Below, piece after piece: positions 23,980 through 29,113 of a DNA stretch of 64,000 nt. The stretch comes from Bacteroidota bacterium (GTDB taxonomy: Bacteria; Bacteroidota; Ignavibacteria; UBA10030). The notes under the pieces were generated by a model. The model was not told where the DNA came from, made no database searches, and was given only the letters and a program-made list of their open reading frames with translations. The position numbers were made by a program, and so were the translations under genes. How positions within the stretch are numbered: the stretch's first letter is position 1; each line of letters starts with the position of its first letter. Location: NCBI GenBank assembly GCA_049523215.1, contig JBEKNC010000002.1, forward strand, positions 127,963-191,962, given 5' to 3'.

Positions 23980-24013
23980 CTTGATGATGCGAACCCAATA
24001 GCAACATATTGCG

Positions 24014-24081
24014 CCCTAATCCGGCGCTCAAGTCCCGCTATCAATATTAATTCTAATGTAGCGGGATGGCGCCTGCTAACA
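24014..24081 (+). repeat. degenerate attC-like inverted repeat
   Basis: CCCTAAT CC GGCGCTCAAGTCCCGCTA … TAGCGGGATGGCGCC TGCTAACA. The internal imperfect inverted repeat is retained and the terminal cores are decayed. Confidence 0.4.
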
Positions 24082-24187
24082 TCTTGAAGCAAATTTTGTG
24101 AAAAGGTTAGAGTAGCGTCCGACACGTTGTCGGACATTTATAGGATCATTGCGATAAATTCGTCCATCTACGAGATGGACTCTACAC

Positions 24188-24934
24188 TCACGTCAGCTTC
24201 GCTAAAAGAAATTCCCTGTTGAGCCGCGCAATGTGTGTCACAGAAATTCCTTTTGGACATTCGGCTTCACACGCATAGTTGTTGGAACAATTTCCAAATC
24301 CCTCTTTGTCCATTTGAGCAACCATTTTCTGAACTCGCTCCTTGCGCTCCGGTTGACCCTGAGGCAGCAATGCAAATTGCGATACTTTAGCCGCAACAAA
24401 CAACATGGCAGAGGAATTCGGACATGCAGCCACGCACGCTCCGCATCCGATGCATGCTGCTGCATCCATTGCTTCTTCAGCGTTCTCCTTAGGCACAAGA
24501 GTGGAATTCGCGTCCGGCACACCTCCGGTTCGCACAGAAATAAATCCTCCTGCCTGCATAATCCTGTCAAACGCTGTTCTATCCACAATAAGGTCTTTGA
24601 TAACCGGAAATGGATTTGCGCGCCATGGTTCGACGGTGATTGTTTGCCCATCAGTGAAGCTTCGCATCCGCACGTCACAGGTTGCCTGCTTGCGCCCTTT
24701 ACCGTGTGCGCGTCCGTTGATCATCATCCCGCAGCTCCCGCAAATGCCCTCACGGCAATCATGATCGAATGCAACCGGTTCTTGATCTCCTATCACCAGT
24801 TGGTTATTCAGCACATCCAACATCTCCAGGAACGATGCATCTGGCGAAATATTCCTCACCTCGTACGTTTCAAATTTTCCCGTATCATTCTGATTCTTCT
24901 GCCGCCAAATTTTTAATGTAAAGTTCATGCTCAT
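24188..24934 (-). CDS. sdhB: succinate dehydrogenase/fumarate reductase iron-sulfur subunit
   Basis: Cys ligands of a 2Fe-2S cluster ([11 protein letters not shown]) plus two 4Fe ferredoxin motifs ([12 protein letters not shown]…CEAECP). Confidence 0.9.
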
Positions 24935-25025
24935 TGTTCCTCATCATTAACTCATCAATACCATGGATTGCCTTTGGATTTTGTTCCAATCGCCATGTTA
25001 TATTTCTGTCCCCCTCTAAGGAGGA

Positions 25026-25415
25026 CTATAGTGGGTCTAAAGATTTGCCAGTTCGCACTTTCACATGTTCATAGATATCCTGCATTACTCCATCTTCATT
25101 TTCGAAGATATCAAAATTAGAATATCGAATTACTTTACAGCCAATTCCATGCAAGTAATCGTCTCTTTCGATATCATTTTGCATTCCTTTGTTTGTATAG
25201 TGCTGACTACCATCAAGTTCAATGATAAGTTTCGCTTTTGCACTATAGAAGTCGACAACATAACGACCACAAGGGAATTGTCGACGGAATTTCACACCTA
25301 ACTGATTCCCTCTTAACAAAGCCCATAGTTTTCTTTCCGCATCGGTCATCTGTTTGCGAAGCACTCGTGCAATTGGCATTAATGACCTAGAATGTTGCGC
25401 AAGATGTTTCTTCAT
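25026..25415 (-). CDS. DUF559 (Vsr-like endonuclease-fold) domain protein inserted between sdhA and sdhB
   Basis: 129 aa with …RRQFPCGRYVVDFY…LIIELDGSQH…DIERDDYLHGIGCKVIRY…, typical of the DUF559 / very-short-patch-repair-like family. Confidence 0.7.
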   Translation of the reverse strand: MKKHLAQHSRSLMPIARVLRKQMTDAERKLWALLRGNQLGVKFRRQFPCGRYVVDFYSAKAKLIIELDGSQHYTNKGMQNDIERDDYLHGIGCKVIRYSNFDIFENEDGVMQDIYEHVKVRTGKSLDPL

Positions 25416-25481
25416 CGCTTATGACCTCACCCTATCCCTCTCCTTGGAGGAGAGGGAATTGGATTTTAACATTTCAAATCC

Positions 25482-27395
25482 TCATTTATAGCTGCGTTCC
25501 GAGGGCTTCACATACTCAAATGTAAACGGTTCTTTGTTCAACTTCGGTTTCTTGCCGTCGCCTGTAAATTCCCACGCCGCTGCGTATGCAAATTTTTTGT
25601 CATTCCGAAGTGCTTCACCTTCCGGTGTTTGGCACTCTTCTCGGAAATGCCCTCCGCATGATTCTTTCCTGTGCAATGCATCGAATGCTAATAGTTCCGC
25701 CAACTCCAGAAAATCAGCGATGCGTCCAGCTTTTTCTAACTCGATGCTGAGATTACCAGAATCACCAACAACTTTTGCATCATTCCAGAATTCTTTCCGA
25801 ATTTCCAAAATCAACTTCAATGCTTTCTTCAATCCTTTCTCATTCCGCCCCATCCCGACAAATTCCCACAAGACTTTGCCAAGCTTCTTGTGGATTTCAT
25901 TTACAGGTTGTTTACCATTGATGGCGAGAAGTTTTTCCACTCGCTCAGCAACGCTCTTATTCGCCTTCTCGAACTCCGAATGACTGGTCGCAAGAGACGA
26001 AAATTTTGTCTTCGCAAGATAATCACTCAGTGTGTAAGGCAGAATGAAGTACCCATCCGCCAAGCCTTGCATCAGGGCGCTGGCGCCGAGACGATTTGCG
26101 CCGTGATCGGAAAAGTTTGCTTCACCGATAACAAACAAACCAGGAATCGTGCTCATCAAATTGTAATCGACCCACAACCCGCCCATGGTATAATGGACGG
26201 CGGGATAGATGCGCATGGGATCTGCATATGGATCTTCGGCAGTGATTTCATGGTACATATCAAAGAGGTTGCCGTACTTCTCTTCGATCCAATGTTTCCC
26301 ATTTCTCTTGATCGCATCTGCAAAATCGAGGTACACTGCCATCTTTGTCTTCCCGACACCAAGACCTTTGTCGCATATTTCTTTCGCCCGGCGAGAAGCA
26401 ACATCGCGCGGCACTAAATTGCCAAATGAAGGATAGAGACGTTCGAGATAATAATCGCGTTCATCTTCCGGAATCTGCAATGGTGCGCGTGAGTCGCCTG
26501 ATTTCTTCGGCACCCAGATGCGCCCATCGTTTCGCAGGCTTTCGCTCATAAGAGTCAACTTAGATTGATAATCGCCGCTCACCGGAATGCATGTGGGATG
26601 AATTTGCGTGAAGCATGGATTCGCAAACAACGCACCTTTCTTATAGGCACGCCAGATGGCTGTCGCATTACTCGCCTTTGCCATTGTGGAAAGATAGAAA
26701 GTATTGCCGTATCCACCGGTCGCAAGCACGACTGCATCCGCGACATACGACTCGATCACGCCGGTTCTCAAATTTCGACAGATGATACCGCGTGCCATTC
26801 CATCAACAACAACCAACTCCATCATCTCCCGCCGATCAAAGAATTTTACGGCACCCTCACTGATCTGACGGCTTAAAGCAGAATATGCACCAAGCAATAG
26901 TTGCTGGCCCGTTTGCCCGCGCGAATAAAATGTCCGCGATACTTGAGCACCGCCAAAAGAACGCATGTCGAGATACCCGGCATAGTCACGGGCAAACGGC
27001 ACACCTTGTGCAACACACTGATCGATGATGCTTCCGCTCACTTCAGCGAGTCGGTAAACATTCGCTTCCCGCGCTCGGTAATCGCCGCCTTTTAACGTAT
27101 CGTAAAACAAACGATAGATGCTATCGCCGTCGTTTGCATAATTTTTCGGTGCGTTGATACCGCCTTGGGCTGCAATACTGTGCGCACGCCGCGGTGATTC
27201 ATGATAGGATAATGAAATCACATTATAACCAAGCTCTGCCAATGAAGCTGCAGCAGAAGCTCCAGCCAGACCGGTTCCGACTACTATGATAGAATACTTT
27301 CGTCGATTTGATGGATTGACTAATTTCATATTGAAGCGATGATTGGACCATTTTTTTTCGATGGGCCCATCGGGAATTTTGGAGTCAAGCGTCAT
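25482..27395 (-). CDS. sdhA: succinate dehydrogenase/fumarate reductase flavoprotein subunit
   Basis: FAD-binding GxGxAG ([12 protein letters not shown]), covalent-FAD His region ([11 protein letters not shown]), and the conserved catalytic blocks of FrdA/SdhA. I placed the start at MTLDSKIP, which abuts the upstream cytochrome b gene. Confidence 0.9.
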
Positions 27396-27397
27396 AG

Positions 27398-28096
27398 TCA
27401 ATGAACCCCCATAATCACGGTTGATGCAGCTTGGTGAAAGAAAAAGAAATAGATCGGAATGGCGGCAAAACCGAGCGGAATTAAAAACCAAACGATACAT
27501 GCTAAGAGATCAAGAAATGGAGTGTATGTTTTATTTCGCAGTCCGAGTGTCTGGAATGCTGATTGAAATCCATGCCGCAAGTGGTACCCCAGCACAAAGA
27601 GGGCAATGAGATAAAAAATAACATACCAAGGGTTTGCAAAGGCATCAACAATGAGTTTGTATGATGAGATCTTTTCTCCCCCAAAACGAGAAGGATATAA
27701 TGGAATAAAAAAAGATCGAAGGTGAATGACAAGAAAGAAAAAGATAATGCTTCCAGTCCAAATAACGGTACGAGAAGAAAGCGTTGTATTGTCTTTCGAT
27801 CGAAAGAGTTCGTACTTGATTGGACGCTTCATCTTATTTGTGAGCCATAATGTAGCACCGAGAAGTGCATGGCCAACAATCGAGAGAAAAAGGAATATCT
27901 CGATGGTAAGAACAACAGGATTATGGACAAGGAATTCGCCGTATGCTTCGAAGGTTTTCCCATTGTCGTGAAATAAGACGAGCAGGAGATTGCCGATGAG
28001 ATGTTCCGTCAGAAAGATGATCAGGAACAAACCGGTGAGACTCATCAAGACTTTCTTGCCGATAGACGAGTAATAAAAAGCAAAGATATTGTTCAT
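27398..28096 (-). CDS. sdhC: succinate dehydrogenase/fumarate reductase cytochrome b subunit (b558 family)
   Basis: 232 aa with 5 TM helices and conserved His residues. First gene of the sdhCAB cluster. Confidence 0.75.
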
Positions 28097-28234
28097 AGAA
28101 ATTTATTTGTGTGGTTTAACAACAGTGCTCTTCCCTGAGTGTTTAATTACACCACCATTTAATGCCAATTTTTCACTGTTGAGAGTGTAGGGAAGATTTT
28201 CGGGAAAAGCAATGAGGTTGGAGTTGGAAGTTAC

Positions 28235-29113
28235 TTAGTTACTCACACCCTCACTAATGAAACGGCGGACAGAAATCATACTTCCGAACAACCCAAGTAC
28301 ACAACCAACCCCGACGATGATACTATAGTAGTACGGTTGAACATGGACAAATTCCGAAAGAGAGACAGTAAGCCACTGCTCCAGATAGTTGAACAGCACA
28401 AATACGATGCCTGCTGCAATCAATCCGCCAAGCAGACCCTGAAGAAATCCCTCCAGCAAAAACGGTAGTCGAATGAAACCGCGCGTGGCGCCGATTAGCT
28501 TCATTGTCTGTATAATTTTACGTTTAGCATAAATGGCAAGACGGATAGTGTTCGCTACAAGAATAACAGAGGAAAGGGTAATAAAGATACCTACGCCAAA
28601 CGTAATCCAGAGAAACAACTTGGCGCGCTCGTCCAGCATTTCCAATAACTGCTTACGGTAGATAACATCATCCACACCTTTGAGAGATTTTACTTGATGA
28701 ACGATACTCTCGGCATGCTTTGCCGTCTTATAGCCATCTTTCAAAAATATTTTGAGTGATGCAGGTAACGGATTGAAGTTCAGTATCTTGTAGATGTCTT
28801 CACCAAATTCTTGTTGAAAAATCTTTGCTGCTTCTTCTTTTGAAACATAACGCACTTCGCGTACACCATCCAACATCTCCACCAATCCCTTCACTTCGGT
28901 AATTTTATCATTAGAGAGTTGATCGTTCAGGAAGGCTTCCATCTCTACTTTCTCTCGGAGTGAGTTTACCACACTATTTGCATTGAGAAAGAGAATCGCA
29001 AAAAAACTGAGCAGCAACAACGACACGCAGATGGTGAAGACTGCGGCAAACATCGACAGCTTCGCGCGTTTGAATCCTGAGAATCCTTCTTTCAACACAT
29101 ATCGTAGTTGCAT
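28235..29113 (-). CDS. ftsX: cell-division ABC-transporter permease-like protein FtsX
   Basis: N-terminal cytoplasmic LRYVLKEGFSGFKR motif, a large periplasmic loop, and three C-terminal TM helices. I chose the start at MQLRY so it does not overlap pheA. Confidence 0.8.
   Translation of the reverse strand: MQLRYVLKEGFSGFKRAKLSMFAAVFTICVSLLLLSFFAILFLNANSVVNSLREKVEMEAFLNDQLSNDKITEVKGLVEMLDGVREVRYVSKEEAAKIFQQEFGEDIYKILNFNPLPASLKIFLKDGYKTAKHAESIVHQVKSLKGVDDVIYRKQLLEMLDERAKLFLWITFGVGIFITLSSVILVANTIRLAIYAKRKIIQTMKLIGATRGFIRLPFLLEGFLQGLLGGLIAAGIVFVLFNYLEQWLTVSLSEFVHVQPYYYSIIVGVGCVLGLFGSMISVRRFISEGVSN

Follow-up and report, generated by a model that had tools for sequence, protein, structure and literature searches.

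What is a small gene of the DUF559 family doing between the flavoprotein and iron–sulfur subunit genes of a succinate dehydrogenase (sdh) operon? The question is raised by a 64,000-nucleotide (nt) stretch of contig JBEKNC010000002.1 from an Ignavibacteria-like Bacteroidota bacterium (below, the window), whose minus strand reads, in order, sdhC, sdhA, a hairpin, a DUF559 open reading frame (ORF) of 129 amino acids, and sdhB. A preliminary description of the locus had taken the DUF559 gene to be an intruder, so that sdhB would have to be expressed by read-through or by independent transcription, and had offered the hairpin as either an insertion scar or an attenuator. The ORF list and Pfam matches confirmed that the gene lies between sdhA and sdhB on the minus strand, and sdhC and sdhA were indeed found to be contiguous, with a gap of 2 nt. 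The reading that we favor, with a probability of roughly 0.55, is that the insert is a selfish nuclease cassette with a core of ≈450 bp (25457 to 25008), whose ends are inward-facing motifs of the BoxC/PIT type serving as imperfect terminal inverted repeats, and which is mobilised by its own nuclease.

The sdhA–sdhB junction in related genomes

One genome per species was scanned with sdhB as the query, which yielded 80 sdh loci from Ignavibacteriota and Bacteroidota. No DUF559 ORF was found at the junction in any of these 80 loci, nor elsewhere in the 862 kb that they comprise, the one trace being a relic in locus L003. The spacing between sdhA and sdhB was mostly 3–150 nt, and did not exceed 183 nt in 61 of the 76 junctions that could be measured. 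The closest relatives formed the groups ((window, L162), L003) and (L005, (L084, L004)) in the sdhA tree; two loci outside the tree, L165 and L164, were placed with the window and with the L084/L004 subclade, respectively, by the matrix of pS (the proportion of synonymous differences per site). An intact cassette occupies the junction in the window, L165, L164 and L084. L162 and L003 have internally deleted relics, with a different deletion in each, the junction of L004 is empty (13 nt), and that of L005 holds a disrupted 23S_rRNA_IVP gene instead. Of the four outgroups, L006, L008 and L009 have compact junctions (3–17 nt), and the junction of L007 is 101 nt long. These comparisons show that the cassette is dispensable and that it decays by internal deletion into ORF-less relics.

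This distribution refutes the idea that DUF559 is an ancestral, functional member of the sdh operon, which we regard as exceedingly improbable. Clade-wide conservation of the gene, which the preliminary description had named as the mark of such a member, was not found. Although the ORF is co-directional with its neighbors, tightly packed between them and under purifying selection, it is missing from all 80 related loci, including close relatives with junctions of 13–17 nt, and it has decayed in L162 and L003. Its composition is also foreign: the GC content of the ORF is 38.5% (32% at third codon positions, GC3), compared to 47.5–49.1% (GC3 of 48–49%) for the neighboring genes, and its synonymous divergence does not follow that of the host genes.

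The latter point was examined by comparing pS between the cassette and the host genes. Between the window and L164, pS was 0.345 for DUF559 and 0.69 for sdhA; between the window and L084, it was 0.456 for DUF559, 0.69 for sdhA and 0.75 for sdhB. For these two pairs, the DUF559 value was below that of every one of 755 sliding 129-codon windows of sdhA and sdhB (the minima were 0.62 and 0.565), and also below each of 10,000 bootstrap resamples. DUF559 reached a pS of >0.8 against a more distant copy, without early saturation. The pattern was the reverse for the close relative L165, with 0.28 for DUF559 and 0.17 for sdhA. In the alignment of the window with L164, the identity was 83–92% (mostly 88–92%) from ≈25546 to 25050, compared to 70–87% (typically 73–83%) in the flanks. 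Because the cassette shows far less synonymous divergence than the flanking sdh genes, it must have passed horizontally from one related lineage to another at this junction, and its history is decoupled from that of the operon. Together with the absence from 80 of 80 loci and the mixed states of the junction, this decoupling supports the view of the gene as an intruder. The junction itself is a recurrent landing site in Bacteroidota and Ignavibacteriota, with inserts of >200 nt and unrelated cargo in 15 of the 76 measured loci.

Motifs at the two ends and expression of the operon

The palindrome noted previously, CCCTCTCC-TTGGA-GGAGAGGG, is real, although it is located at 25436–25456, about 10 nt from the position first given (25425–25450). 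It is not a chance match: with up to three mismatches allowed, it was matched once in 64 kb, compared to an expectation of 0.10, and the exact palindrome pattern with a variable loop was matched 0.00 times in shuffles. It forms a stem–loop with a 10-bp stem and a 3-nt loop (25435–25457), and the left region folds with a ΔG of −25.1 kcal/mol (z = −3.05). A third block, GGGTGAGG (25432–25425), begins 3 nt past the hairpin, and the whole motif consists of CCCTCTCC (25456–25449), the loop TCCAA, GGAGAGGG (25443–25436), the loop ATA and the third block. Its 8 triplets (G*G-C, A*A-T, T*A-T) all belong to the types permitted in purine-motif triplexes. Repeats of this kind, referred to as BoxC, PIT or TM motifs, reportedly go back to earlier work by Bachellier et al. 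and by Hoyne and Maher (2000). Because the hairpin plus GGGTGAGG fits the consensus of the E. coli repeat BoxC/PIT/TM_ECO, CCCTCNCCC-N3-6-GGGNGAGGG-N3-GGGNGAGGG (PMC4666352), we identify the left hairpin, from its sequence, as the duplex part of a potential intrastrand-triplex motif of the BoxC/PIT/TM type.

BoxC/PIT/TM has been known in E. coli since the 1990s and occurs in hundreds of bacterial genomes, but its function, spreading mechanism and enzyme have not been found (PMC4666352). There are 23 copies of BoxC/PIT/TM_ECO in strain MG1655, which form a purine-motif intrastrand triplex in vitro, and according to the authors, mobility functions were never found near them (PMC4666352). The motif in the window resembles BoxC/PIT/TM_ECO in having three blocks of nearly the same sequence (CCCTCTCC-N5-GGAGAGGG-ATA-GGGTGAGG), an intergenic position, a locus that varies between relatives, and inverted pairs. 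It differs in that the stems are of 8 rather than 9 nt, the host is Ignavibacteria-like with 43% GC, and there is one copy in 64 kb, which brackets a protein gene inside an operon; the published work on BoxC/PIT/TM_ECO reports no associated enzyme (PMC4666352).

A covariance model (R1) built from 18 versions of the motif gave 59.7 bits at 25420–25459, the sole strong match in the window. The same model gave two matches in the 862 kb of sdh loci, corresponding to the L003 relic and a weak site in L071, and 126 matches in 310 kb of DUF559 loci. A strict triplex finder that required seven perfect triplets found a single site in the window and no site in the sdh loci (862 kb), but 127 sites in the DUF559 loci (422 kb). 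Among these 127, 116 were located within 200 nt of the ORF, and 84 had the third strand facing the ORF.

At the other end, a second hairpin, GTCCTCCT-TAG-AGGGGGAC (25026–25008), overlaps the stop codon of the ORF, and is accompanied by an inner G-rich block within the last codons. The hairpin of the window contains one G-U wobble, tolerated on the sense strand only; a perfect GTCCCCCT..AGGGGGAC hairpin is kept in L084, L164 and L083. In the clade of the window, the 3′ end reads ...GACCCACTATAG-TCCTCCTTAGAGGGGGAC and repeats the left end in inverted, degenerate form. When the two ends of the window were aligned, the score in the inverted orientation was 26, compared to 18 in the direct orientation and to a mean of 7.6 and a maximum of 20 for shuffled sequences. 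In the five clades analysed in this way, with 500 shuffles per locus, the inverted orientation scored higher than the direct one in all five, and above every shuffle in four. The pattern was clearer than in the window in L140 (69 vs. a best shuffle of 32) and L115 (46 vs. 26), in both of which the ORF has a forward motif upstream and a reverse-complement motif downstream; in L083, the score of 14 was not significant (shuffle maximum of 21). The loops of the two ends also match: in the window, the 5′ loop TCCAA reads TTGGA when reverse-complemented, compared to TTAGA at the 3′ end (4/5), while GTGTA and TACAC in the gut-Bacteroides-type loci are exact reverse complements. The preliminary description had included neither the third block nor the stop-codon hairpin, nor the low GC of the ORF.

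The motif varies in its details. In a DUF559 clade of 52% identity from human-gut metagenome contigs (L087–L137), the left motif is CCTCCCTT-GTGTA-AAGGGAGG, the second loop contains an extra hairpin, GGCTCGGCGAAGCCGAGAC, followed by a perfectly triplex-compatible third strand, GGAGGGAT, and the inverted right-end hairpin is GCTCCCTT-TACAC-AAGGGAGC. The near-identical loci L169 (2386–2500) and L173 (2438–2500) differ by a 55-nt insertion located exactly between GGGTTAGG and GTGAGGTC of the left motif, and the same 55 nt are found in the upstream relic cassette of both loci. The equivalent position is occupied by a 23-nt hairpin in L166 and by a duplicated GGGTGAGGTCA in L083. Insertion or conversion thus seems to be especially frequent in the second loop and the third strand.

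How, then, is sdhB expressed? Read-through, one of the two routes first suggested, is likely, and is supported by the absence of any terminator-like site on the operon strand of the insert; the only terminator-like call was on the plus (antisense) strand. A single, weak promoter-like match was found on the operon strand of the insert, and the density of such matches was not above that in shuffled sequence. On the operon strand, the left stem runs into TAGGGTGAGG, with no U-tract. We infer that the cassette is transcribed by read-through from the sdh promoter, and that sdhB is translated from its own GAGGAA site. The sequence GTGAGG, located 9 nt upstream of the DUF559 ATG and placed likewise in the majority of the close homologues compared (in L138, the distance is 10 nt), may also be the ribosome-binding site of the DUF559 ORF.

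Neither of the roles first suggested for the hairpin was borne out. Because it is found with DUF559 at unrelated loci and in other phyla, fits the BoxC/PIT/TM consensus and is paired with an inverted copy at the far end of the ORF, the hairpin is not well described as an insertion scar, and an attenuator is unlikely on the same grounds and from the lack of a U-tract on the operon strand. A wider role in RNA, in which the hairpin would tune the expression of sdhB or DUF559 through attenuation, processing or stabilisation of the operon transcript, is in our view very unlikely as well. It could draw on the stable stem–loop predicted in the sense RNA, on the resemblance of GTGAGG near the start codon of most close homologues to a ribosome-binding site, and on the strand preference of the wobble in the 3′ hairpin. 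However, the right-end motif is on the opposite strand, the motif is far from start codons in L169, L173 and L175 and in the solo copies, and no Rfam match was obtained in an E-value-mode scan of 24000–28500. Furthermore, earlier experiments detected neither promoter nor terminator activity in PIT elements, and RNA does not form triplexes of the purine-motif kind (PMC4666352), yet the third block is conserved. A structured RNA leader made up of the hairpin and GGGTGAGG was also considered and set aside, on account of the right-end copy on the other strand, the common solo copies and a literature that describes a DNA triplex motif. The raw count of G-U vs. A-C mismatches, which bears on the choice between RNA and DNA, was 16 to 3, mostly in terminal pairs; the internal pairs gave ≈3 to 1, too few for a distinction.

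DUF559 genes at other loci and the proposed mobility of the cassette

Relatives of the cassette are inserted at several unrelated sites. A copy of the DUF559 gene with 86% identity is located between rsfS-like and argS-like genes in L083, and copies with 71% identity are located between two AIRC-domain (PurE-family) genes in L086 and L166. Other DUF559 genes were found between glyoxalase-like and HAD-like genes (L085), a DUF620 gene and a BNR gene (L169–L174), a heparinase gene and a GT2 gene (P0019), a hypothetical gene and clpB (L175) and, in frameshifted form, cas3- and cas5-like genes (L138); the neighbors in L083, L085 and L138 were assigned by eye. In all nine independent contexts (9/9), DUF559 is co-directional with both neighbors. 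No shared target was obvious in the flanks of the different insertion sites. The end motifs of the frameshifted cassette (L138, 2899–3333, and also L135) are decaying, within what by eye is a type I-C-like CRISPR-Cas locus with cas3 and cas5/cas8c.

In E. coli K-12 (L163, NC_000913.3, 1,351,040–1,351,830), the DUF559 gene ycjD is situated co-directionally between sapF and fabI, and TM_ECO no. 9 (1,351,239–1,351,204) is the copy found ≈170 nt downstream of ycjD. The gene is present in 3378 of 5426 complete E. coli genomes; those that lack it have an eefRABCD RND-efflux island at the same place (PMC12817139). The ycjD stop codon lies within a degenerate Y/R hairpin, which is followed by a partial duplicate of the 3′ end and then by BoxC/TM_ECO no. 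9 (L163, L179).

Inward-facing triplex motifs are associated with DUF559 genes in several phyla. In a set of 41 non-redundant DUF559 genes, the sense-strand motif was found upstream in 21 of 37 cases and the antisense-strand motif in 9 of 37; downstream, the antisense-strand motif was found in 19 of 40 and the sense-strand motif in 7 of 40. The composite TTCCCTCTCC-loop-GGAGAGGG-N2-4-GGGTGAGG occurs upstream of DUF559 genes in Ignavibacteria-like, high-GC and enterobacterial genomes. In L169, L173, L085 and E. coli, a relic stands in tandem with an intact cassette.

The motif also occurs without the ORF. The exact motif GGAGAGGGNTAGGGTGAGG was found in at least 120 viral or prophage contigs (IMG/VR, L180–L299), where at least 17 forward-then-reverse pairs with a spacing of 49–116 nt have the look of miniature inverted-repeat transposable elements (MITEs). 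By our reading of the coordinates listed in the published MG1655 table, four of the five inverted TM pairs face inward. The motif is thus far commoner than the gene, much as repetitive extragenic palindromic (REP) sequences outnumber the genes for the REP-associated tyrosine transposases (RAYTs). Holder et al. found no phage association of the TM motif (PMC4666352), and the IMG/VR prophage calls that carry it may include host flanks.

It is rather unlikely, though less so than the other alternatives, that DUF559 is passive cargo at a fragile site, that is, that the triplex motif is unstable and DUF559 is an accessory gene or a host structure-specific repair nuclease that is moved by homologous recombination. 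This would leave unexplained the inverted motif copies at both ends of the ORF in several phyla, the joint movement of the ORF and the motifs to unrelated sites, the strict co-orientation with the neighbors and the frequent loss or truncation of what would be a repair enzyme. It would, on the other hand, fit with the observation that rearrangements between E. coli strains are inherently more frequent at TM loci than at control sites (PMC4666352), and with the junction being a general hot spot, since its inserts include 23S_rRNA_IVP, GT2-like and AAA ATPase genes. The sdh-site cassettes also share a site-specific spacer, as expected for transfer via homology arms in sdhA and sdhB, and the motif is widespread without a DUF559 ORF within 300 nt or on the contig.

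DUF559 is a very large family of unknown function that includes E. coli YcjD. In the protein encoded in the window, the Pfam match covers positions 6–108 of the 109 in the DUF559 profile, and a Pfam scan of all 129 residues gave DUF559 and MTES_1575 only, with no Vsr match. An AlphaFold2 model (mean predicted local distance difference test, pLDDT, of 86.6) was matched by Foldseek to 3HRL, a DUF559 protein, to 3R3P, the catalytic domain of I-Bth0305I, and to 1VSR. The best PDB match was 3HRL, with a target-normalised TM-score of 0.89 and an identity of ≈36% (E = 4.5e-17 for the PDB sequence match). The EDxHD catalytic domain 3R3P_A had E = 4.4e-4 and a target-normalised TM-score of 0.79, and 1VSR had E = 0.012; the sequence search of solved structures gave no match to Vsr. 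The model predicts a PD-(D/E)xK nuclease fold of the Vsr-like/EDxHD type, and the earlier assignment of the protein as DUF559/Vsr-like holds, through the PF04480 match and the three structural matches. Residues D55, D68, H72, D81 and R84 were invariant among 53 sequences, and E66 nearly so. Because dN/dS, the ratio of nonsynonymous to synonymous rates, is ≈0.1 (0.09–0.125), the intact copies encode a protein under selection.

Several known proteins invite comparison. The protein belongs to the same family as YcjD and Neisseria NGO0050 (3HRL), which are likewise small and stand-alone, and YcjD is similarly wedged between unrelated genes, with a BoxC copy adjoining, in a part of E. coli. Unlike these, it has only ≈36% identity to 3HRL, and its 72.8 bits fall below the cutoff of 218 for the NCBIfam YcjD equivalog. 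It shares the fold and the catalytic residues of Vsr, but differs in having no Pfam Vsr match, no adjoining cytosine methyltransferase (its neighbors being sdhA and sdhB) and an accessory or mobile genomic behavior. Membership in a defence system was considered and rejected, as the PADLOC matches (a DpdF fragment, mREase and HEase) were weak only. Foldseek also matched the model to RAP/FASTK-like Vsr-fold proteins of apicomplexan and ciliate mitoribosomes (E = 0.003–0.06), a reminder that the Vsr-like fold can act on RNA.

With the EDxHD homing endonucleases, of which free-standing members are known, the protein has in common a Vsr-like fold, a composite acidic/His active site and a selfish invasion of conserved loci (I-Bth0305I, 3R3P; PMC3239194). 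Could it be a classical free-standing homing endonuclease, which cuts the cassette-free junction or nearby coding sequence, with the hairpins serving expression or stability only? The same site filled in diverged lineages, a divergence below that of the flanks, an empty sister allele and relics make up a typical homing life cycle; the raised identity takes in the final ≈60 nt of sdhA, as expected from co-conversion, and the protein has weak matches to homing-endonuclease profiles besides the fold and catalytic motif of I-Bth0305I. We nevertheless consider it distinctly unlikely. The 129 residues make up a catalytic domain and two N-terminal helices only, with no extra domain and no long-site recognition module, whereas I-Bth0305I has an N-terminal NUMOD/HTH DNA-binding region (PMC3239194). 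Unlike I-Bth0305I, the cassette is not in an intron or intein, but between two complete genes, it is flanked by inverted structured repeats, and it has close relatives at unrelated sites, of which the 86%-identical copy is hard to reconcile with long-site specificity. The conservation of the end motifs across phyla would also be left unexplained.

For the selfish cassette that we favor, we infer a mode of movement in which the nuclease acts on its own end motifs. Co-oriented with the operon, the cassette would be transcribed by the read-through described above, and since its stem–loops have no U-tract on the operon strand, sdhB would still be transcribed. The nuclease would recognise and nick the hairpin or triplex structures of the end motifs in single-stranded or supercoiled DNA, and the resulting breaks would be mended by recombination. 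After DNA uptake, the cassette would be copied into cassette-free homologous alleles, with a homing-like outcome, and would occasionally move to new intergenic sites; deletions would also be produced. ORF-less BoxC/PIT copies would be non-autonomous derivatives, related to the cassette as REP sequences are to RAYT genes. As in REP/RAYT, a nuclease gene is flanked by inverted short structured repeats that are also found in many ORF-less copies and pairs. The enzymes differ, however, RAYT being of the HUH/Y1 type and the protein here PD-(D/E)xK Vsr-like, and the repeat is of the triplex type rather than a REP hairpin.

A number of points weigh against this mode of movement. The motif is single-copy in the window, with no dispersal of the REP/RAYT kind visible within the 64 kb, and the right-end motif of the window is degenerate. 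A 9-bp direct repeat, AAAATCCAA, flanks the insert but is not kept in L084 or L162, and matched filled and empty pairs yielded neither exact cassette ends nor a definable target-site duplication. We know of no small DUF559 protein for which nuclease activity, a cleavage site or transposition has been demonstrated. The spread at the same site could be plain homologous recombination without the nuclease. Among the matches listed, there was no DUF559 ORF in the 1.12 Mb of viral and prophage contigs picked by the motif, so the motif does not need a DUF559 gene nearby on the contig. Finally, no stable triplex was seen in vivo by Holder et al. (PMC4666352).

No link between the BoxC/PIT/TM motif and DUF559 was found in the open-access literature searched, although one may exist elsewhere. 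None of the three components, DUF559, BoxC/PIT and the free-standing selfish nuclease gene, is new in itself; their linkage appears to be. We suggest, quite tentatively and with more doubt than confidence, that small DUF559 nucleases might be the missing protein partner of the BoxC/PIT/TM repeats, and that together they might make up a widespread new class of minimal mobile elements. If so, TM-ORF-TM would be the autonomous form, whereas solo TMs and inverted TM pairs without an ORF would be non-autonomous; the folded ends would be what the nuclease recognises, and DUF559 activity would cause the reported genomic instability at TM sites. This provides one concrete hypothesis for two puzzles, the TM repeats and DUF559, and one that is testable in E. 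coli. The locus also suggests that an operon central to respiration can accommodate, between two of its subunit genes, a selfish cassette that is transcribed by read-through.

Layout of the locus and other cargo at the junction

The features of the locus are listed in Table 1. The gene call on contig L001 gives an sdhA of 637 amino acids; a longer ORF reaches 27500. The spacer on the sdhA side is kept in the sdh-site cassettes of L084 and L164, and is missing from the rsfS/argS-site cassette of L083. Searches of the window with tblastn and a hidden Markov model gave no second copy of the DUF559 gene. The arrangement does not stem from faulty assembly, as independent contigs from ENA and Logan encode the identical DUF559 protein in the same context; the protein record names NCBI and JGI sources as well.

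Table 1. Features of the sdh locus, in coordinates of the window.
Feature	Position	Strand	Basis or remark
sdhC/frdC, cytochrome b subunit, first operon gene	28096..27398	−	Pfam Sdh_cyt, E = 2.1e-9; gene call on contig L001
sdhA/frdA, flavoprotein	27395..25482	−	Pfam FAD_binding_2, E = 4.3e-56; Succ_DH_flav_C, E = 1.6e-32
Site-specific spacer after the sdhA stop	25458..25481	−	Holds small inverted repeat GGATTT...AAATCC
Cassette left end, BoxC/PIT/TM-type potential intrastrand-triplex motif	25425..25456	−	Sequence, folding, covariance model, strict triplex finder
DUF559 ORF, 129 amino acids	25415..25026	−	PF04480, E = 1.3e-34, 118.8 bits vs. 20.6-bit cutoff
Cassette right end, degenerate inverted copy of left motif	25008..25040	+	Folding; inverted alignment vs. 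shuffles
Cassette–sdhB spacer with sdhB ribosome-binding site GAGGAA	24935..25007	−	No terminator-like site on minus strand
sdhB/frdB, iron–sulfur subunit, downstream of insert	24934..24188	−	Pfam Fer2_3, E = 1.3e-25, plus Fer4 domains

The cargo found at the junction in other loci is varied. Genes for 23S_rRNA_IVP (four-helix-bundle) proteins are present in L011 and L032, as confirmed by Pfam, and a similar ORF of 124 amino acids is present in L013. A GT2-like ORF of ≈300 amino acids occupies the junction in the Chitinophagaceae loci L013, L018, L019, L033, L039, L055 and L079. An AAA_15/AAA_21 ATPase gene and an ORF of 157 amino acids that encodes an unknown protein were found in L043, and the junctions of L038, L060 and L067 are long spacers without an ORF.

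Behind the sdhA stop codon, L003 (5680–5800), L165 (3371–3456) and L005 (5534–5570) have AT-rich leaders composed of GTTATCAGT-like repeats. The leader precedes the 23S_rRNA_IVP gene in L005 and the DUF559 relic in L003, which suggests that two kinds of small cassette invaded the junction one after the other. Model R1 gave 19.7 bits for a solo Y/R hairpin in L071 (3854–3893), from Terrimonas pollutisoli; together with its G-rich tail, it reads CTCCCTCCC-TTT-GGGGGAGGGAG-AAGGGGAGAGG. This hairpin is located upstream of sdhA, probably in the sdhC–sdhA spacer, and is possibly the relic of a related cassette.

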